Below the pieces are notes generated by a model that saw only the letters and a list, made by a program, of their open reading frames with translations, was not told where the DNA came from and did no database searches. Made by a program: the position numbers and the translations under genes. From the NCBI GenBank assembly GCA_964610055.1, contig CAZSUC010000001.1, positions 70,021-134,020 on the forward strand: a stretch of 64,000 nt of DNA. Reading direction: 5' to 3'. This DNA comes from an uncultured Candidatus Saccharibacteria bacterium (lineage in GTDB: Bacteria > Patescibacteriota > Andersenbacteria > UBA10190). Below, in pieces: positions 53,516 through 64,000 of the stretch (within the stretch, counting starts at the first letter, position 1; each line of letters opens with the position of its first letter).

Positions 53516-53603
53516 GGACAGGTCGCATAGCTGGTCGAGTGCGCCGCTCTCGAAAAGCGGTAGGGATGCAAGTCTCTCGTGGGTTCGAATCCCACCCTGT
53601 CCG
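53516..53603 (+). tRNA. tRNA-Ser (anticodon CGA), long variable arm
   Basis: Acceptor GGACAGG/CCTGTCC, anticodon stem CCGCT/AGCGG with loop CTCGAAA, variable arm about 18 nt, T-arm GTGGG TTCGAAT CCCAC. Confidence 0.75.
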
Positions 53604-53762: not shown

Positions 53763-53991
53763 ATTAATAATTGCTATTATCAATACTCGAAGGTCCTAAT
53801 TTTCGAGTGAATATATTTGAAGATAACCAACTTAGTAACTAACGATAATACATCACTAGTCAAGTCAACATACGTTCATACAACTGGACCTATTAGTACG
53901 GATCGGCTCAACACATTACTGTGCTTACACCTTCCGCCTATCAACCTGGTCATCTTCCAGGGGTCTCATAATGAAACTTTATCTTAGAGTG

Positions 53992-54023
<32 letters not shown>

Positions 54024-54215
54024 ACCAGCCCGACTTAGCTACCCAGCCATGCTCCAGTAACGGAACAACTGGTACACCAGAGGTCGGTCCCTTCCGGTCC
54101 TCTCGTACTAGGAAGGACGCTCCTCAAGTTTCCACGCCTGCGACAGATAGGGTCCAACCTGTCTTGCGACGGTTTGAACCCAGCTCGCGTATCGCTTTCA
54201 TTGGCGAACAGCCAA

Positions 54216-54247
<32 letters not shown>

Positions 54248-54261
54248 GTGAGCCGACATCG

Positions 54262-54586
54262 CTGTCATTATCTTCTTGTTTCCAAAAAGCATAGACTATG
54301 CCTTCATCTCGGACAGTGCTTTAGACTGATGTGTCATAGCATCTGTTTTTTTACCGAGAGCCAGCCTTTTGCCCGCTTTTAAATCTTAATCTTCAAGCGA
54401 GCCTCCCCTTTCGGGTCAGTCGTTACGGGGCCTACATGTATGCAGGCTTCCCACGGTGTTGTCTTCTGTTCTAATGAACAGGTCAGAGTTCGCCGTTTTT
54501 AGCTGGTTTATATTTAATCTGTTTTATTTTCGAAAAGACTTTGGATCAGCACTCAAGGATCTCTCCTTGGGCACCCCGATATATTA
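54262..54586 (-). mobile_element. ORF-less group I intron (about 325 nt) in 23S between E. coli-equivalent U2500 and C2501
   Basis: Exon sequence GGCACCU|CGAUGUCGG is contiguous in E. coli 23S but here is split by 325 nt. The intron begins UAAUAUAUCGGGGUGCC; GGGUGCC can pair with the 5' exon GGCACCU (U-G at the splice site), forming P1. The intron ends in G. It contains an S-element-like GGCAUAGUCUAUGC. Confidence 0.75.
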
Positions 54587-54623
54587 AGGTGCCAAACCCC
54601 ACCGTCTATGTGGACTATTGGGT

Positions 54624-54660
<37 letters not shown>

Positions 54661-55139
54661 ATGATCTTCCGCTCTTCTACGTGAGAACGGTCGGTTCACT
54701 AAGCTCCACTTTCGTGTCTGCGCGACATGTACGTCTTGCAGTCAAGCCGGCTTATGCCTTTACACTCTAAAGCCCGATTTCCATCCGGGCTGAGCCGACC
54801 TTATAGGCTCCTCCGTTACAATTTGGGAGGAATCCGCCCCAGATAAACTACCCGCCAGGCACTGTCCGGGTGGTGGTTTCACACCACGTCGTTAGACGCG
54901 TCAAACATAAAGGGTGGTATCTCATTGTTGGCTCCGGTCCGTCCTAAGACAAACCATCATAGCCTCCCACCTATACTGAGCAACATGCTCGACGTGCCAA
55001 TACCAAGCTGTAGTGAAGCTCCACGGGGTCTTACCGTCTAGCCGCAGGGTGGCGGCATCTTTACCGACAATGCAATTTCGCCGGGTCCTTCGTTGAGACA
55101 GTTCTCCAGTCGTGACGCCATTCGTGCGGGACAGAACTT

Positions 55140-55893
55140 CATGTTCTAACCCTTTCTTTCGAAAGGCATAGACTATATTTTCATTCTCTAAAGCAAATTC
55201 AATATTTCCTGTAGATATATTTTTCTTTCCACGGAAACACTGAGCATATTGCTAGTTAGATCCAAAATTTCTCGCAATCCATCCCTTGTAAGATGGTTAC
55301 CGCGGGCAATGATTTTACATATGATTTTGAATTGTTCAAAATCGCGTTGTTTAGCAGATAAAAGTGGATACTTTTCAAAATGTGGAATTATTATCCTATT
55401 AATATCTTTGATACTACGCGTCTCATAATGAGCGGTCTTATCAGTTGATGAATAACGGATAGTGCCACATTGAAAGTAACTAAGCATAAGCTCAAGTACT
55501 TCTATTCTGTTTATCTTCTGCCCGACAGAGAAACTAGGACGTACCTCCCAGCCAACTAAGAGTTTAGGTCTCTTAACTATGGAGACGGAAAAACATCCTT
55601 CCCCATCAGTATAACCAGAGATATATGCTCTTAATTGTTGTTTGCTTTTTGAGAAGCCGGCGTCTGATAAAGATTGATGTATCATAATCTGATTCTCTAT
55701 CTCACTTTTGGCTAAGTGCTTGAGCACATTAGCGTTCAGATCAGTCGTTACGGGGTCAATCTGTTGTTGAAACAGACGACTTCCCACGGTATTACCCATG
55801 TCCATATTATAACATAATACGAACACTAGGGCTTCACCGTTATCAGCCGGATTCTTTAATTCATGGTCGCCCATGAATTCAGGCGAATTCTTC
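55140..55893 (-). mobile_element. group I intron (about 754 nt) in 23S after E. coli-equivalent U1951 (helix 69-71 region), carrying a homing endonuclease ORF
   Basis: Exon GGCAGGU|AAGUUCUGUCC matches E. coli GGGU1951|AAGUUCCGACC after removal. The 5' exon ends in U and the intron ends in G. IGS-like GCCUG occurs near the intron 5' end. An S-element-like AAAUAUAGUCUAUGCC occurs near the 3' end. Confidence 0.75.
55188..55685 (-). CDS. single-motif LAGLIDADG homing endonuclease encoded within the 23S intron
   Basis: The YISGYTDGEGCFSV LAGLIDADG motif starts about 23 aa after Met (MIHQSLSDAGF...), I-CreI-like spacing. The track ORF extends in frame upstream to a GTG at the exon boundary (55895), which is unlikely to be the real start. 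About 166 aa. Confidence 0.7.
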   Translation of the reverse strand: MIHQSLSDAGFSKSKQQLRAYISGYTDGEGCFSVSIVKRPKLLVGWEVRPSFSVGQKINRIEVLELMLSYFQCGTIRYSSTDKTAHYETRSIKDINRIIIPHFEKYPLLSAKQRDFEQFKIICKIIARGNHLTRDGLREILDLTSNMLSVSVERKIYLQEILNLL

Positions 55894-57026
55894 ACCTGCC
55901 AAGGAATTTCGCTACCATAGGACCGTTATAGTTACGGCCGGCGTTCATCGGCGCTTGGCCCCCCAGCTTGCACCAGGGGGATTAACGTTCCGACACTGGC
56001 CAGGCGTCAGCTCCTATACATACTCTTTCGAGTTCGCAGGAACCTGTGTTTTTGCTAAACAGTCGCTAGAGATCGTGCGCTGCGCCCGTCACAACCTTGC
56101 GGCTGCAACGGGAGCCCTTATTGCGAACTTACGGACGCTTTTTTGCCGAGTTCCTTAACGAAGGTTCTCCCGATCACCTTGGTACTCTTACACCAACCCA
56201 CCTGTGTCGGTTTGTGGTACGGGCGGCTAGACAGACGAATGAGTGACGCTTTTCCAGGAAGCTGCTTTCATACCGGAGGCTTGGTCTTGCGACCGCACTC
56301 TCCCGCATAACTTCGCCGTTTAAATTGGACACTCGGATTTACCTAAGTGTCCCGACTAATGTTATGCGCAGGATAAGTCATATGTCCTGTTTATTTCCGC
56401 AACTTCGTCACGCCCCTCAAACTGTCTAACCGGCGCAGGAATATCAACCTGCTGTCCATCGCCTACGCGTTTCCGCCTCGGCTTAGGCCCGGCTAACCCT
56501 GGGCTGATTTACATTGCCCAGGAAACCTTGGGTTTCCGGTGGCAGGGAATCTCACCCTGCTTATCGCTACTCATGCCACCATTCTCTCTTCCGTCCGCTC
56601 CACCGTGCCTCACAGCACGACTTCAACGCAAAGGCCATGTTCAAATAGAAATGGCCGGACGAAATGCTCGCCTACCAATCCGAACCTAATCGGTTCGGAC
56701 CCCGTGTCATCGGTACTTATCTTGAGCCCCGGTACATTATTCGGCGCAAGGTCGCTTGACGAGTGAGCTATTACGCTATCTTTAACAGATGGCTGCTTCT
56801 AAGCCAACTGCCTCGCTGTTTCAGCAACCTCACCACCTTAACCACTTAGATAAGATTCAGGGACCTTAGACTACGGTCTGGGCTGTTTCCCTTTTGAGCG
56901 CGGAGCTTAGCCCCCGCGTTCTGACTCCCGTGATTACGCCAATAGCATTCGGAGTTTGCTAGGGTCCCCCCGCTTGCGCGGGGAAGAGCCCTTGCAGCGC
57001 TCTACCACTATTGGTTACTACACGAG

Positions 57027-57062
<36 letters not shown>

Positions 57063-57442
57063 TGCCAGGTTCGATTGGAATTTCTCCGCTATCCACAAGT
57101 CATCCGATGGTATTGCACAGCCAAACGGTTCGGGCCTCCACGCAGTATTACCCGCGCTTCACCCTGCTCATGGATAGATCACCTGGTTTCGGGTCTCGTG
57201 CATGCTACTCTCTATCTAATTCTTCTCTCGTACTATCCTTGCGGACAGTCCGGAAAAGAAAAAGATAGAAACGCGCTATTAACACTCGCTTTCGCTCCGC
57301 CTACGCAATGTAATTGCTTAAGCAAAAGCAGCATACAGCGAACTCGGTGGCTCGTTCTGCAAAAAGCACGCCGTCACCCCACTTGCGTGGGGCTCCGACT
57401 CAATGTAGGTATGCGGTTTCAGGTCTATTTCATTCCCCTTCC

Positions 57443-57489
<47 letters not shown>

Positions 57490-58378
57490 ATGGTCGTATT
57501 TAGTCTTAGGAGGATCAATTGACCTGTGCTAAAAGCACAAGACAATTGATTGCATGTAGTTCTCCTTGCTTCAGACGGGATTTCACATGTCCCGCCGTAC
57601 TCAGGTTAATAGCAATCTTTTAAAACGTATCTTTCATATACGCGACTCTTACGCTCTTTGGTGGGGCATTCCAGCCGCCTTCTATTAGACAAACGTTTAT
57701 AAATGACTCGCGCTCCATAAACGCGCGAACGCTACTACCATCTACTCTCTCTTAGCAACGCTTTATGGGCTTACACTAAGAAAGTTTGGACTGTTCCCGT
57801 TTCGCTCGCCACTACTCAGGGAATATAATCACTATCTTCTTACCAGGAATTGCCTGTTCTCTTCTTACCTGTGACCTTGCGGTCTCCAGGAAAAAGAGAA
57901 CGGGATTCAAGATAGAAATAGTAATCGTTTTTTTCTTTTCCTCTGGCTACTAAGATGTTTCAGTTCGCCAGGTTCGCTCCACTTAAGCCTTGCAGCTTAA
58001 GGGTAACTTTGGGATGAACCAAAGTGGGTTTCCCCATTCGGACATCTGCGGATCAAAGGTTGCTCAGCACCTCCCCGCAGCTTATCGCAGCCGGCCGCGT
58101 CCTTCATCGCCGTCCATTGCCAAGGCATCCGCCGCATACCCTTACGGTGTATGACGTACCTAACTTGACTAGCGGTGTGTTACCGCTAAATCGCCTCTTG
58201 TTTATATATTATGTGATCGTTTTGAATTACTTTTGTCGGTTATCTTCACTATATTCAATTGGCAAAGTGCCGTCTTTTCTGTGTCTCAACCATACAAACC
58301 ACAGAAAAAAACCTTCAAGTTCTTTATCTGTGTCTTGTATGACTTAATCTGTTCGGGCCAAAAAGAAGGAGCTTCGGG

Positions 58379-58412
58379 TTTTAAAACCGCTTCCAGAGGA
58401 AGCGGTTTTAAA
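58379..58412. other. perfect palindromic hairpin in the 23S leader region
   Basis: TTTTAAAACCGCTTCC AGA GGAAGCGGTTTTAAAA (12-bp stem flanked by A/T tracts). Confidence 0.5.
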
Positions 58413-58493
58413 GGAGAGCTGGGCCCATAGGGCTCTACTCGCCGCTTCTTAGAGGTCTGCAGTAGGATAATTTAAACTGCATAATTAACAGCT

Positions 58494-58521
58494 AGTATAC
58501 TTGACCTTATAAACCTGTCAA
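58494..58521 (-). promoter_or_regulatory. near-consensus sigma70-type promoter directed toward the 23S-5S genes
   Basis: The minus strand reads TTGACA-N16-TATACT, located about 320 nt upstream of the 23S 5' end and downstream of a terminator-like hairpin. Confidence 0.5.
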
Positions 58522-58538
58522 GTGATCTTTTTTCAACG

Positions 58539-58564
58539 TTAAAACCCGGTTTCCCGGGTTTTAA
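58539..58564 (-). terminator. intrinsic terminator-like hairpin after the membrane-protein gene and before the 23S promoter
   Basis: AAAACCCGG TTT CCCGGGTTTT palindrome; on the minus strand the stem CCCGG/CCGGG is followed by TTTTAAC. Confidence 0.45.
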
Positions 58565-58616
58565 CCGACTGCTGCGCAGCCATTGCTTTTGTGTTTCCTG
58601 TCACCAGGACTCGTGT

Positions 58617-59357
58617 CTACTTACTCTTATCTAAGAAGTCAGATTCGACTTTCTGTAGCCACTTCGCCGCCATATCTTTGCCTCCTAAGCCAAAGGCTAA
58701 GCCTCCAGCTAAGGCTGTCATTGCGAATAAAGCGGTTAATAAACTGTTGATTAAAGCCTCGGCAACCTTGAGCTGAATCAAAGCAGCCATTATTGCAAAA
58801 ATAATGATTGCCCACTTGCTCACTCCTGCGATTGCACCTCCGCTTGAAAAACCGGCAGCTTTAACACTGGCATTAACTGTCTTGGAGACAAAATTTGCCA
58901 GCACTACCGCGATGATCAAGATTAAAGCAGCAACAACTACGTTCGGTACATACGCCAACACTTGGCGCAAGAAACCTGATACGTCGTCTAGCCCCAAAAT
59001 ATCCGTTGCAGCCAACAAAGTTACTGCGATCAAGAACCATTTAATTACCTCGCCAAAAAGTCGAGGAATATTAACTTTCACGTTAGCGCGCGCTGCCGCA
59101 TTCTGCAGACCGGTCAAGTTATCAAAAGCCTGGTTTACGCGTAAAACCACTAACCCCTTTTCAATTAGACGACCCACTGCAACCGCTAGGGCCCAACCTA
59201 ATGAAAAGACTATTACAGCCGCAATCAAGTCAGGCAAAAATGTTATAAATTCATTCCACAATCCAGTGAGCGAACTTATAATAGCATCCCCCCAAGCCGA
59301 CACTGATCCTGAGCCTCCTCCGCTCGCAGCTTGTATATCATAAGGCATCACGCTCAC
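58617..59357 (-). CDS. membrane protein with repeated conserved TM-helix modules (MscS-associated TM_helix-like)
   Basis: 246 aa; repeated LPDLIAAVIVFSLGWALA...GRLIEKG / VPNVVVAALILIIAVVLANFVSK pattern; located inside the 16S-23S spacer. Confidence 0.4.
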   Translation of the reverse strand: MSVMPYDIQAASGGGSGSVSAWGDAIISSLTGLWNEFITFLPDLIAAVIVFSLGWALAVAVGRLIEKGLVVLRVNQAFDNLTGLQNAAARANVKVNIPRLFGEVIKWFLIAVTLLAATDILGLDDVSGFLRQVLAYVPNVVVAALILIIAVVLANFVSKTVNASVKAAGFSSGGAIAGVSKWAIIIFAIMAALIQLKVAEALINSLLTALFAMTALAGGLAFGLGGKDMAAKWLQKVESDFLDKSK

Positions 59358-59478
59358 CTCCTCTCAAGGAAATAATGAAGGATTTAACTCTTATTGGCCT
59401 AAACATACATCTTGCTTTTTGCTCTGTCAAAAAAGCGGGTTGCTGTCTTGCGACAACAACCCGTTCAAAACCAAAACA

Positions 59479-60120
59479 CTACTGGTTTTTCTTCCGAGCC
59501 AAGAATTCAAGCCCCTTGCCTACCTCAACGTTGATGGGAATCCCCTGCTTGCACAGCGGGCAATCTGCTTCATCCCAGGCGTCGAGCGTGACATTCGCCA
59601 GTGTGAACAGCTTTGGCACGTCTGCCAAATCCGCCGCCGTCACTCCTCCACGGTTGCAGAGAGCGCCAAGGCCAACCACCTCGCCTCCAACCGCTCTTAC
59701 GGCTTCCACTACCTTCCGAGCGGAACCGCCGGTCGTGAGCACGTCCTCTACTACCAGCACGCGCCTGCCGGTAATAAGTTTGTTGTACCCGCGCCTGATG
59801 ACGAATGTATCGCCAGCTTCTGATTTCTCGGAGTAAACGGCTAACACGTCTTTCCCGGAAGAAAGGGCGTAAGCTGTCCATTGGCTCAAGACCACGCCCC
59901 CGATAGCTGGGCCACACACCACTTGCACATTGTCGTTCGCGAAATTCGCTGCGATATGGCCGCAAAGCCACTCAGGGCACCGGGGGCGCACGTAAACCGC
60001 ATCCTTGTTGACGTATGCCGTACCATGCTTGCCCGACGTATACACGATATGGTCGCCGGTAATTACCGCTCCCACTTCGTGCAAAATCCGCAACACTTCT
60101 TCTGACGTAGATCCTGACAT
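59479..60120 (-). CDS. type I phosphoribosyltransferase (orotate PRTase-like)
   Basis: PRPP-binding motif VLVVEDVLTTGGSARK; 213 aa, the size of PyrE. About 60% GC versus about 42% in flanking DNA, which is why several overlapping stop-free ORFs appear on both strands. Confidence 0.6.
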   Translation of the reverse strand: MSGSTSEEVLRILHEVGAVITGDHIVYTSGKHGTAYVNKDAVYVRPRCPEWLCGHIAANFANDNVQVVCGPAIGGVVLSQWTAYALSSGKDVLAVYSEKSEAGDTFVIRRGYNKLITGRRVLVVEDVLTTGGSARKVVEAVRAVGGEVVGLGALCNRGGVTAADLADVPKLFTLANVTLDAWDEADCPLCKQGIPINVEVGKGLEFLARKKNQ

Positions 60121-60304
60121 AGGTCACCTCTGATTCAGTGCCTGATTGAAAGTACAAAACAGCCTGACCATCAAGCTGCTCCTGCCCTTAACTTAGGTAA
60201 TCAGCCTTAAATAGTCAAAACGCCCAGCGGGTGCCGTTTGTACAAAACGGCTCTGATCCCGCTGGGCTAAATCAGCCCCCAACCACACAGTAATCTTATA
60301 TCCG

Positions 60305-60375
60305 TGGACCTGAGGAGAATCGAACTCCTATCTCCCGGATGCAAACCGGGTGCTCTGCCACTAAGCTACAGGCCC
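60305..60375 (-). tRNA. tRNA-Ala (anticodon TGC)
   Basis: Acceptor GGGCCTG/CAGGTCC (G-U), anticodon stem CCCGG/CCGGG with loop TTTGCAT, T-arm GGAGTTCGATTCTCC. Confidence 0.8.
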
Positions 60376-60423
60376 TTCTAACCGTAATCTCACTGTACTG
60401 ACCCTTTTCAGTTTGTCAAAACC

Positions 60424-60672
60424 CTAGTCCCCGCCTACTCCAAATAAAAACAAAACTCTTTGAATAAACAGATTATACAAATCAAATGCCAGCATAAAAC
60501 CGCCAAAAATCAAAAATGTCCCAAATACTTTCCATGACATCCACCGCGCATTAACCGCTCCGAATATCTCGCTTATGTCTCCAAAATTTCGCAGCATCAT
60601 ATCTGTATATCTTACGCATATATATCCAGCTGCCATAATAAGCGCTCCTAAAATAAATAGTCCAAAGCTCAT
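60424..60672 (-). CDS. small hypothetical membrane protein (82 aa, two predicted TM helices)
   Basis: Hydrophobic segments flank a short loop; no family recognised; sits between the cca gene and tRNA-Ala. Confidence 0.35.
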   Translation of the reverse strand: MSFGLFILGALIMAAGYICVRYTDMMLRNFGDISEIFGAVNARWMSWKVFGTFLIFGGFMLAFDLYNLFIQRVLFLFGVGGD

Positions 60673-60690
60673 TTCCGTATTCTAACACAC

Positions 60691-62163
60691 TTATACATGA
60701 TATTTCCCCCGAATTTCGTTTTCACGGCGCTTTTCTTCTTCTTCTTTGGCTGCTTCGCCTAATCTCTTTAATTCCTCCGGATCTTTGTCTTTGAGTTTTT
60801 CTGCTTCTTTTATTAAATATTCCCGTGTATTTTTAAGTGGATCATTTAACACTTGAGCCAATAACGCGTTTAAAATACCGCCAATTTGCGGGCTTGGTTT
60901 TAGACCTAAGTCTGTCATTAAATCTTTGCCATTAATTGCCAACTGGTTCACCGTCACTGGTTCACTCGCCGCTTTTTCTACCAGAAATTGCAGATGACGC
61001 AAACGATACGGCTCTGCTTTTGGCACCCCCGATCCTTTGCGTTCCGCAATCCGCAATTTTATTAAATCATCGAAATTTTCTTGGCCTACTCGTCGCAATA
61101 ATCGGCGCGCGCCCGCTTCTGTCACTTTGCCAATATCATAGTAAAACATATGGTGTCTTACTAAATGAGTAACTTGCTTTATAAAATCATTTGAGAATCG
61201 CAATCGCTTTAATATGTTTTCTGTCATTTTTGCGCTCACAACATCATGTCCATAAAACGTATATTCACTTCCCTTGCGTCTGCGCGTGCGTGGTTTGCCA
61301 ACATCATGCAATAACGCCGCCCACCGCACCTGCGGCACATATTCATATTGAGCCGCAAATTGCAGTGACTTTATTAAATGAGTAAAAACATCATATTTAT
61401 GGTGCAAATTTTGCTCAATCCCTACTCCTTCTGCTAACTCTGGCATAATCTCTTGAAGCAATCCTGACTGTTGCAGCATTGCTAAACCGCTTTCCGGATG
61501 ATCACTCCCAATAATTTTATTTAATTCATCTCTAATTCGTTCTTGTGAAACTACTTTTATATTCCCGCTCATCGCACACAAACTATTCCAAGTCTCTTGC
61601 TCTATTTCAAAGTCTAATTGTGTTGCTAATCGAACCGCGCGCAATAAGCGCAAAGCATCTTCTTCAAACCTTTCTTTTGGATTTCCAACCGCTCTGATTT
61701 TTTGATCATGTAAATCTTTAATGCCGCCAAAATGGTCAATAATTGCCAGGCCATCAATAATAACGCTATTCGGTTGAGGCGCTGTTTCTGTGTTGGCCGC
61801 TAATGCGTTAATTGTAAAATCTCGCCGCGACAAATCCTCGGTCAAAGAAGTCGTAAAATCAACTTTATCCGGATGCCGTTGATCGCTGTATTGTCCCTCT
61901 GTGCGATAAGTTGTAACTTCAATCTCTTTTAATGACTCATCAAGTGTGTCATTTAACACACTTACCGTTCCAAACTTATTTTTATAAAAACTCTTAGGTA
62001 AAGCTTTTTGAATTTCATCTGGAGTTGCATTAGTTGTCACGTCCCAATCATGTGGAGTTCGTCCCAATAACAAATCCCGCACGCATCCACCCACAGCGTA
62101 GGCTTCAAAGCCTGCTTTTTGTAATGTCGCGATTACTGTTTGTACTTCAACCGGAATCGTCAT
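60691..62163 (-). CDS. cca: CCA-adding tRNA nucleotidyltransferase with HD domain
   Basis: Pol-beta head GGCVRDLLLGRTPHDWDV; HD motif LLHDVGKP; 490 aa. Confidence 0.8.
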   Translation of the reverse strand: MTIPVEVQTVIATLQKAGFEAYAVGGCVRDLLLGRTPHDWDVTTNATPDEIQKALPKSFYKNKFGTVSVLNDTLDESLKEIEVTTYRTEGQYSDQRHPDKVDFTTSLTEDLSRRDFTINALAANTETAPQPNSVIIDGLAIIDHFGGIKDLHDQKIRAVGNPKERFEEDALRLLRAVRLATQLDFEIEQETWNSLCAMSGNIKVVSQERIRDELNKIIGSDHPESGLAMLQQSGLLQEIMPELAEGVGIEQNLHHKYDVFTHLIKSLQFAAQYEYVPQVRWAALLHDVGKPRTRRRKGSEYTFYGHDVVSAKMTENILKRLRFSNDFIKQVTHLVRHHMFYYDIGKVTEAGARRLLRRVGQENFDDLIKLRIAERKGSGVPKAEPYRLRHLQFLVEKAASEPVTVNQLAINGKDLMTDLGLKPSPQIGGILNALLAQVLNDPLKNTREYLIKEAEKLKDKDPEELKRLGEAAKEEEEKRRENEIRGKYHV

Positions 62164-62190
62164 ATTAACCAGTATACATCCTTCCTACAG

Positions 62191-62264
62191 TGGGCACGCC
62201 TGGGCTCGAACCAGGGACCTCTTCATTATCAGTGAAGTGCTCTAGCCAGCTGAGCTACGTGCCC
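62191..62264 (-). tRNA. tRNA-Ile (anticodon GAT)
   Basis: Acceptor GGGCACG/CGTGCCC + A, anticodon stem CTTCA/TGAAG with loop CTGATAA, T-arm CCTGGTTCGAGCCCAGG. Confidence 0.85.
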
Positions 62265-62303
62265 GTGACCCTTATTTAACCCTCTAATCTGTATTTATGC
62301 AAG

Positions 62304-62335
62304 CAAAAACCCGGGATTATCTACCCGGGTTTTGC
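62304..62335. terminator. palindromic hairpin between the 16S 3' end and tRNA-Ile (terminator or processing stem)
   Basis: CAAAAACCCGGG ATTATCTA CCCGGGTTTTG; the same A-stem-T architecture on both strands. Confidence 0.4.
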
Positions 62336-62510
62336 TATGTGAATGTATTGCTATGCGCGAGTCGCAAACAGCTTGCCTCTTCCTCGTTCCGCATATTTAA
62401 AATGGAAGGAACGATTTCCATGTATTTAGCTGTTATCCTCGAGGGACAACAGTCGACCTTCTAGGCAATCTAAACTTGTCGCCAAGTCCTAGATTGTTTG
62501 TCAAATCCCT

Positions 62511-64000
<1,490 letters not shown>

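Follow-up and report, generated by a model that had tools for sequence, protein, structure and literature searches.

A very probable mobile group I intron with a LAGLIDADG endonuclease gene at L1951 of the 23S rRNA gene of a candidate phyla radiation bacterium

The 64-kb stretch of bacterial DNA analysed here (64,000 nucleotides of contig CAZSUC010000001.1; hereafter the window) carries a single 23S ribosomal RNA (rRNA) gene, and this gene is interrupted between U1951 and A1952 (E. coli numbering; site L1951) by an element of 754 nucleotides (nt). We conclude that the element is very probably a mobile intron of group I (subgroup-IA type, with hairpins P7.1 and P7.2) residing in the genome of a member of the candidate phyla radiation (CPR). 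Its insertion site is precisely placed, its fold is conserved and covaries among relatives, its open reading frame (ORF) is intact and under selection, and the same site is occupied by its relatives in many phyla. From this fold we infer that the L1951 intron is spliced in vivo, while the single-domain architecture of the encoded protein, together with the behaviour of the related enzyme I-ShaI, suggests that it may form a homodimer and cleave intron-less alleles of the 23S gene.

Insertion site and ribozyme fold

The 23S gene is 4286 nt long as compared with 2925 positions in the bacterial large subunit (LSU) model of Rfam. In the alignment to that model about 756 extra nt fall between ...GAAAUUCCUUGGCAGGU and AAGUUCUGUCCCGCACGAAUGG, the exon flanks of the insert reading ...CCUUGGCAGGU on the 5' side and AAGUUCUGUCC on the 3' side. 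Read on the minus strand, the last base of the 5' exon is U 55894, the intron opens at G 55893 (GAAGAAUUCGCCUG...), and it closes with ...GAACAUG (...UUAGAACAUG), the terminal (omega) G being nucleotide 55140. Because the insert begins with G where the 3' exon begins with A, and ends with G where the 5' exon ends with U, the boundaries cannot be slid without losing the mature sequence GGU-AAGUUC. When a spliced junction of 240 nt was aligned to E. coli 23S rRNA, it formed one uninterrupted piece, with the junction U at position 1950 of the annotated 2903-nt E. coli rrl copy. In that copy the landmark A2503 sits at 2502, so that the junction U is U1951 in standard numbering. An earlier note on this DNA, made from the sequence alone, had proposed a group I intron at the U1951-equivalent site with these same limits (55140-55893), preceded by U, ending in G and restoring GGU-AAGUUC upon removal; we agree with each of these points and amend its orientation, since all of the feature lies on the minus strand. 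The coordinates of the intron, its structural elements and the neighbouring genes are collected in Table 1.

Table 1. Positions in the window of the L1951 intron, its ribozyme helices, its endonuclease gene and the surrounding genes
Feature	Position	Strand	Remarks
23S rRNA gene	53871..58156	minus	Rfam LSU_rRNA_bacteria, 2257 bits
L1951 group I intron (very probable), 754 nt	55140..55893	minus	LSU covariance-model alignment, sequence reading, E. coli numbering
Homing-endonuclease gene, 165 codons + stop	55188..55685	minus	likely start ATG 55685..55683, stop TAG 55188..55190
3' exon, first bases AAGUUC (A1952...)	55134..55139	minus	LSU alignment, sequence reading; AGUUC part pairs in P10
P1, 5' exon strand CAGGU	55894..55898	minus	pairs with GCCUG; U 55894 in the U•G at the 5' splice site
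P1, 3' strand (internal guide) GCCUG	55880..55884	minus	complementary to exon end CAGGU
P10 guide GAAUU	55886..55890	minus	pairs with 3' exon AGUUC 55134..55138
P2 hairpin AAUUCAUGG-GCGA-CCAUGAAUU	55858..55879	minus	GNRA-type loop; compensatory changes in 8 of 9 pairs
P3, 5' strand CCGGC	55846..55850	minus	partner 55657..55661; 100% paired, 3 covarying pairs
P3, 3' strand GCCGG	55657..55661	minus	within the ORF, codons D-A-G of conserved 'SDAG'
P4-P5-P5a domain	55786..55840	minus	P4 ACGGU/ACCGU, J4/5 GAA, P5 GCCC/GGGU, P5a UAUUAU/AUAAUA
P6/P6a hairpin GGG-AA-GUC-G-UCUGUU ... AACAGA-UU-GAC-CCC	55752..55785	minus	95% paired, 5 covarying pairs
P7, 5' strand GACU	55743..55746	minus	guanosine-binding helix; J6/7 GUAAC just before; partner AGUC 55171..55174
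P7.1 hairpin GCUAA-U-GUGC UCAA GCAC-UUAGC	55711..55733	minus	independent two-hairpin folding in the family
P7.2 hairpin GAUAGAG ... CUUUAUC	55666..55701	minus	holds the ORF start codon
P8, 5' strand UUCUCAAAAAGCAAA	55641..55655	minus	complementary to 55184..55197, one A·A mismatch
P8, 3' strand UUUGCUUUAGAGAA	55184..55197	minus	holds the ORF stop codon
J8/7 (UGAAAAUAU) and P7 3' strand AGUC	55171..55183	minus	element 'AUAUAGUC' of the earlier note
P9 hairpin CCUUUC-GAAA-GAAAGG	55151..55166	minus	87% paired, 5 of 6 pairs covary
L2500 group I intron, 325 nt	54262..54586	minus	same 23S gene, no ORF
tRNA genes in the 16S-23S gap	62191..62264; 60305..60375
CCA-adding enzyme	60691..62163		60-68% identical to proteins named Ca. 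Andersenbacteria
82-residue membrane ORF	60424..60672
Phosphoribosyltransferase-like ORF	59479..60120		name by eye only
246-residue membrane protein	58617..59357
88-nt tRNA gene	53516..53603	plus	directly downstream of 5S, convergent

The proposed structure was tested on 34 introns from which the ORF had been deleted (the window intron and those of 33 genomes), which were aligned and their pairs counted, with controls in which pairing partners were slid by 1-3 columns and with 500 shuffles. Standard pairs occupied 90.5% of cells (36-47% in the slid controls), compensatory changes on both sides were seen in 31 of 58 pairs, and the covariation score reached 0.404 as against 0.07-0.11 in the slid controls; none of the 500 shuffles matched any observed measure. 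Covariation is heavy in P2, P6, P8 and P9, the first five pairs of P8 (83% paired) all covarying; P4 is paired in every member with two covarying pairs, one of them with four pair types, and P5 is paired in 94%. The three closest relatives have the same exon variant and intron start as the window, and their P2 and P6a stems are wholly different in sequence yet still paired.

A U•G pair is found at the 5' splice site in all 34 members, the adjacent exon-guide pair covaries (GC in 25, UA in 6, AU in 3), and the guide tracks the helix 71 variant of its host (CGGGU with GCCCG, CUGGU with GCCAG and, in the window, CAGGU with GCCUG), a relationship that is hard to account for unless P1 is used. The guide of the window is the GCCUG near the intron start in which the earlier note had seen a likeness to an internal guide sequence, and it is indeed complementary to the exon end. 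Pairing of the four inner positions of P10 stands at 76.5% over the whole family; as the exon does not vary, the changes occur on one side only. The segment that separates P7 from the 3' strand of P3 was independently predicted to form a pair of hairpins in almost all members, although their sequences are unrelated; such extra hairpins, P7.1 and P7.2, are the signature of subgroup IA, and both are found in the window intron.

These splice-site features bear on one alternative, in which the intron remains in place in the mature 23S rRNA and is tolerated there, as reported for the L1931 intron of Simkania negevensis, to which two papers refer by citing an 'unspliced group I intron in 23S rRNA' (PMC1995217, PMC11270868). 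Under retention P1 and P10 would have been kept though they are relevant only to the choice of splice sites, and neither the co-variation of the guide with the host exon nor the terminal G in all examined members would be expected. The intron interrupts the loop of helix 71 (domain IV), which adjoins helix 69 in the ribosome, and a 754-nt insert at this place is unlikely to be harmless. CPR genomes usually have one rRNA operon (PMC11270868). We consider retention very unlikely, and a spliced intron remains the preferred reading.

A family covariance model for the P3-P7 core, trained on the 33 foreign introns only and leaving out the window sequence, made exactly two matches in the window: one to the L1951 intron (55739..55854, 101.6 bits, E = 3e-22), aligned over the P4-P5-P5a domain, and one to a second intron at site L2500 of the same gene (54414..54510, 64.7 bits). 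Together with the covariation across the core helices (P7 being invariant), the first of these matches bears out the group I assignment of the earlier note. That note had also pointed to an S-element-like AUAUAGUCUAUGCC near the 3' end; it is present, and it forms the best-aligned portion of the generic Rfam group I match. The ATAGTC of this J8/7-P7 3' region is invariant in the family.

Several points weigh against the reading of the element as an active group I intron with a homing-endonuclease gene. The generic Rfam model (RF00028, Intron_gpI) scored only 24.7 bits on the L1951 intron (E ~1e-3), missing its gathering score of 50; its alignment was confident only at the 3' end (AUGAAAAUAUAGUCUAUGCCUUUCGAAAGAAAGG), and it placed P1-P6 wrongly inside the ORF. 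The covariance-model check suggested in the earlier note was thus borderline with the generic Rfam model, while the family-specific model gave a strong match. The P7 5' strand is invariant (34 of 34) and its pairing is supported by conservation with zero covariation, invariance by itself being uninformative on pairing; in P10 the changes are confined to one side. The tested structure was derived from the window sequence, which gives it some bias over the slid controls, and splicing and exon ligation are deduced from the fold. On the protein side, the choice of start codon is deduced from homologues and from predicted local distance difference test (pLDDT) values, and no biochemically characterised L1951-site enzyme turned up in the literature searched. 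We attribute the sub-threshold Rfam score to the ORF of about 470 nt in P8 and to P7.1 and P7.2, rather than to the absence of a ribozyme. An Rfam scan of one relative (locus L070) likewise left its L1951 intron unmatched at E ≤ 0.01, which suggests that low sensitivity of the generic model is a trait of the L1951 family.

The sub-threshold score could also be taken to favour a quite different account, namely an intervening sequence that RNase III excises with no subsequent ligation, so that the 23S rRNA ends up in fragments, and whose likeness to group I introns is incidental; such sequences are common in bacterial 23S genes, probably in those of CPR too (PMC11270868). This is hard to reconcile with the strength of the family-model match or with covariation over ten helices, including the P3/P7 pseudoknot (P7 itself invariant). 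The RNase III intervening sequences known so far each consist of one extended hairpin and occur at other helices, whereas the ends of this insert have no long terminal stem between them. We therefore regard this account as extremely improbable and return to the group I intron.

The endonuclease gene and its product

The ORF fills the loop of P8 and extends over the 3' strand of P7.2, the 3' strand of P3 and both strands of P8. Its product matches the Pfam family PF00961 (LAGLIDADG_1) over the full profile (1-102), scoring 94.3 bits where the cut-off is 23.1 (E = 9.5e-27). Each of the 29 columns that are invariant in the family is kept, among them the acidic E of DGEG in the motif YISGYTDGEG. 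An AlphaFold2 (AF2) prediction made on the database protein P0001 has pLDDT values of 31-63 for residues 1-75 and above 93 from residue 78 on. In this predicted model the helices (H) and strands (E) H78-92, E93-101, E109-120, H125-134, E138-142, E147-152 and H155-168 form the alpha-beta-beta-alpha-beta-beta-alpha core expected for a LAGLIDADG protein, and Foldseek matches it to solved LAGLIDADG enzymes with probability 1.00. The claim of a gene for a single-motif LAGLIDADG endonuclease is thus upheld by profile, PDB matches, predicted fold and structural comparison.

Sequence searches of the PDB gave their strongest matches to both halves of I-OnuI-family enzymes from fungal mitochondria (I-PanMI, I-LtrWI, I-SmaMI, I-CpaMI and others; E = 1e-40 to 1e-30, each half about 30-40% identical). 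These are fused two-domain monomers of about 300 residues with asymmetric sites, whereas the window protein has a single domain and would need to dimerise. The top structural match is I-TnaI (PDB 5gkk; E = 9e-22 by sequence), with a TM score of 0.89 on the target, a root-mean-square deviation of 1.7 Å over 144 columns and 31% identity; like the window protein it is a single domain of about 150-170 residues. It comes from a Thermotoga L1931 intron, so that its DNA target would differ. I-CreI, the archetypal homodimeric LAGLIDADG enzyme, is encoded in a group I intron at L2593 of the Chlamydomonas chloroplast 23S gene. The window protein resembles it in having one LAGLIDADG motif on the N-terminal side, an acidic residue in G-D/E-G and a length of about 160 residues, and differs from it in 23S site and in its distant sequence; I-CreI is missing from the best 60 PDB sequence matches listed.

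The earlier note was right that an ORF with YISGYTDGEG is present, but the ORF listed with it (55188..55895, 235 residues, with a GTG start in the exon) was rejected as too long, its upstream part being translated ribozyme. The annotated 228-residue protein P0001 is too long as well, such long ORFs reaching P2 or the exon. Upstream of 'SDAG' the only conserved blocks in the protein alignment are MGNTVGSR and DPVTTD, which are translations of the conserved RNA core (P5'-P4'-P6 and J6/7-P7, respectively), and most homologues begin two codons ahead of SDAG, itself situated over the 3' strand of P3. The likely start is thus the ATG that corresponds to M71 of the listed ORF, yielding a protein of 165 residues with the acidic motif residue at position 29. 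The endonuclease frame remains open for 70 codons upstream of this start (55686..55895, minus strand), through the 5' half of the ribozyme and into the exon, and several relatives are likewise open from the P5' region. Gene callers accordingly add N-terminal extensions that are the ribozyme core in translation.

In comparisons with the three closest relatives, nonsynonymous divergence (dN) was 0.24-0.32 and synonymous divergence (dS) was saturated, with dN/dS of 0.16-0.18 where computable. Low dN beside saturated dS indicates that the gene is maintained by purifying selection, which shows that the protein matters and not what for. One could therefore suppose a true group I intron whose protein is no longer a mobility nuclease and is kept as a maturase, or acts as both. 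Some LAGLIDADG proteins are maturases, the PDB matches include an 'mRNA maturase' (2ab5), and the overlap of the ORF with P7.2, the 3' strand of P3 and P8 couples RNA and protein tightly. A role as maturase only, however, does not sit well with the retention of the catalytic E and of every family-invariant residue, nor with a sporadic distribution at one site over many phyla, which is what active homing predicts; moreover, nuclease activity is known for I-ShaI, a related enzyme from the CPR (PMC11270868). We find the maturase alternative unlikely and favour a homing endonuclease.

Relatives, precedents and proposed mechanism

The encoded protein has 1329 database homologues, and relatives of the endonuclease are found in 346 species-representative genomes; locus-level comparisons were made on the best 80 of the relatives' loci (L001-L080). 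The 23S flanks could be anchored on both sides in 66 of these 80, one flank being missing or the anchor match poor in the remainder, and in all 66 the intron lies exactly before AAGUUC. These 66 inserts measure 690-810 nt, each with a terminal G. The three closest relatives, at 65-73% amino acid identity, occupy L1951 of the 23S gene as well.

Among the best 80 loci, 44 belong to Actinomycetota and 22 to CPR, the rest coming from Dormibacterota, Chloroflexota, Gemmatimonadota and others. The Actinomycetota are from Thermoleophilia, Gaiellaceae and Acidimicrobiia, many of them soil metagenome-assembled genomes, so that L1951 introns seem common in some non-CPR soil lineages. In describing such introns as rare in most bacteria, the earlier note understated the spread of the family (346 genomes, and 44 of 80 loci in Actinomycetota). 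The 23S exons on either side of the intron resemble the 80 loci all to much the same degree (about 71-78%), which is uninformative for taxonomy. The scatter of the family over phyla at one site fits repeated horizontal homing, as has likewise been argued for rDNA introns by Haugen et al. (PMC1995217).

Six of the best 80 loci carry the label Ca. Saccharibacteria; rRNA introns are reported to be almost entirely absent from that group (PMC11270868). In one of the six, L070, another group I intron (positions 47-314; Rfam 54.9 bits, above the gathering score) lies about 50 nt upstream of the L1951 intron, a close pairing that recalls the closely spaced L1917 and L1951 introns of Coxiella.

The element has direct precedents. 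Coxiella burnetii carries the group I intron Cbu.L1951, of 720 nt and with an ORF for a 157-residue single-motif LAGLIDADG protein (PMC1995217, Table 1). The window intron is like it in site, in size (754 versus 720 nt) and in ORF length (165 versus 157 residues), and differs in its host, which belongs to the CPR whereas Coxiella is a gammaproteobacterium. Cbu.L1951 is said to self-splice and to belong to subgroup IA3, as Raghavan et al. reportedly described in 2007 in J Bacteriol 189:6572. By the rule that introns sharing an rDNA site, and likewise their endonuclease genes, group in a single clade (PMC1995217), the window intron and its protein would be homologous to Cbu.L1951 and its product.

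Closer in host is the CPR survey of Tsurumaki et al. (2024), who found 82% of CPR 23S genes to carry insertions; about 45% of these insertions matched the Rfam model for group I introns, and LAGLIDADG_1 ORFs were concentrated at positions 1917, 1931, 1952, 2593, 2604 and 2657 (PMC11270868). The '1952' insertions share with the window element the host group, site class, Pfam family, single domain and group-I-like flanks; the survey differs from the present analysis in giving neither secondary structures nor an enzyme test for the '1952' site (PMC11270868). It did describe I-ShaI, an active homodimeric CPR enzyme at a neighbouring 23S site, which is I-CeuI-like (PMC11270868).

We propose the following cycle. 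In the rRNA precursor the guide GCCUG would pair with the exon end CAGGU to form P1, with the U•G at the splice site, and free guanosine bound at P7 would attack after U1951. The terminal G 55140 would next occupy the guanosine site while P10 (GAAUU with AGUUC) holds the 3' exon, and exon ligation would restore helix 71 (GGU-AAGUUC). The 165-residue protein, acting as a homodimer by analogy with I-CreI, I-TnaI and I-ShaI, would cleave 23S rDNA that lacks the intron close to 1951/1952; the two strands of helix 71 make the DNA nearly palindromic there. The intron-less target would read ...GAAATTCCTTGGCAGGT/AAGTTCTGTCCCGCACGAATGG... (site GGTAGCGAAATTCCTTGGCAGGTAAGTTCTGTCCCGCACGAATGG; E. coli-type site ...TTGTCGGGTAAGTTCCGACC...), and repair from an intron-bearing copy would then spread the intron by homing.

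Second intron, genomic surroundings and significance

The L2500 intron lies between GGCACCU and CGAUGUC, with a P1 of GGCACCU and GGGUGCC and with a terminal G; it is matched by Rfam Intron_gpI at 41 bits (E ~1e-8), under the gathering score. It shares motifs with the L1951 family (ACCGUGGGAAG...CCCCGUAACGACUGA and GAUGAAGGCAUAGUCUAUGC). A recent origin as a copy of the L1951 intron was rejected, as it is no closer to the L1951 core of the window than to foreign ones. Relative to the bacterial model, domain I of the 23S gene has two extra inserts, at about 57828..57927 (~100 nt) and 57513..57557 (~45 nt) on the minus strand; a group I signal is absent from both, which could represent expansion segments or intervening sequences of the RNase III type.

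With two introns in one 23S gene, one might ask whether they are more than selfish passengers: splicing of the L1951 and L2500 introns, or the freed RNAs binding to ribosomes via their guides, could limit 50S maturation and thereby put a brake on the growth of a symbiont with a reduced genome. Such a role has reportedly been proposed for the two Coxiella 23S introns, by Raghavan et al. in 2008. For the present host we think it quite unlikely.

According to Rfam, a 5S gene lies downstream of the 23S gene and a 5'-truncated 16S gene upstream. The 16S and 23S genes share a strand, and the gap of about 4.3 kb between them (58157..62512) holds two tRNA genes and four protein ORFs (Table 1). Judging by the similarity of the CCA-adding enzyme, the host is a CPR/Patescibacteria bacterium related to Ca. 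Andersenbacteria.

The L1951 element is a further member of a widespread class, anticipated by the Coxiella L1951 intron (PMC1995217) and the CPR '1952' LAGLIDADG insertions (PMC11270868), and it introduces no new principle. Its interest lies in its being a clean and complete example of a group I intron in bacterial rRNA whose homing-endonuclease gene is intact. Since the literature searched yielded no characterised enzyme for this site, the 165-residue protein may reasonably be considered a candidate meganuclease of new specificity, the candidate target being the nearly universal 23S sequence around helix 71. What is new here is a structural model of the L1951 family, comprising 66 anchored introns, a covarying structure and a core covariance model, for a family that the generic Rfam model largely misses. 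Its practical value is as a better annotation model for L1951 introns, and the abundance of the family outside the CPR is likewise observed here.

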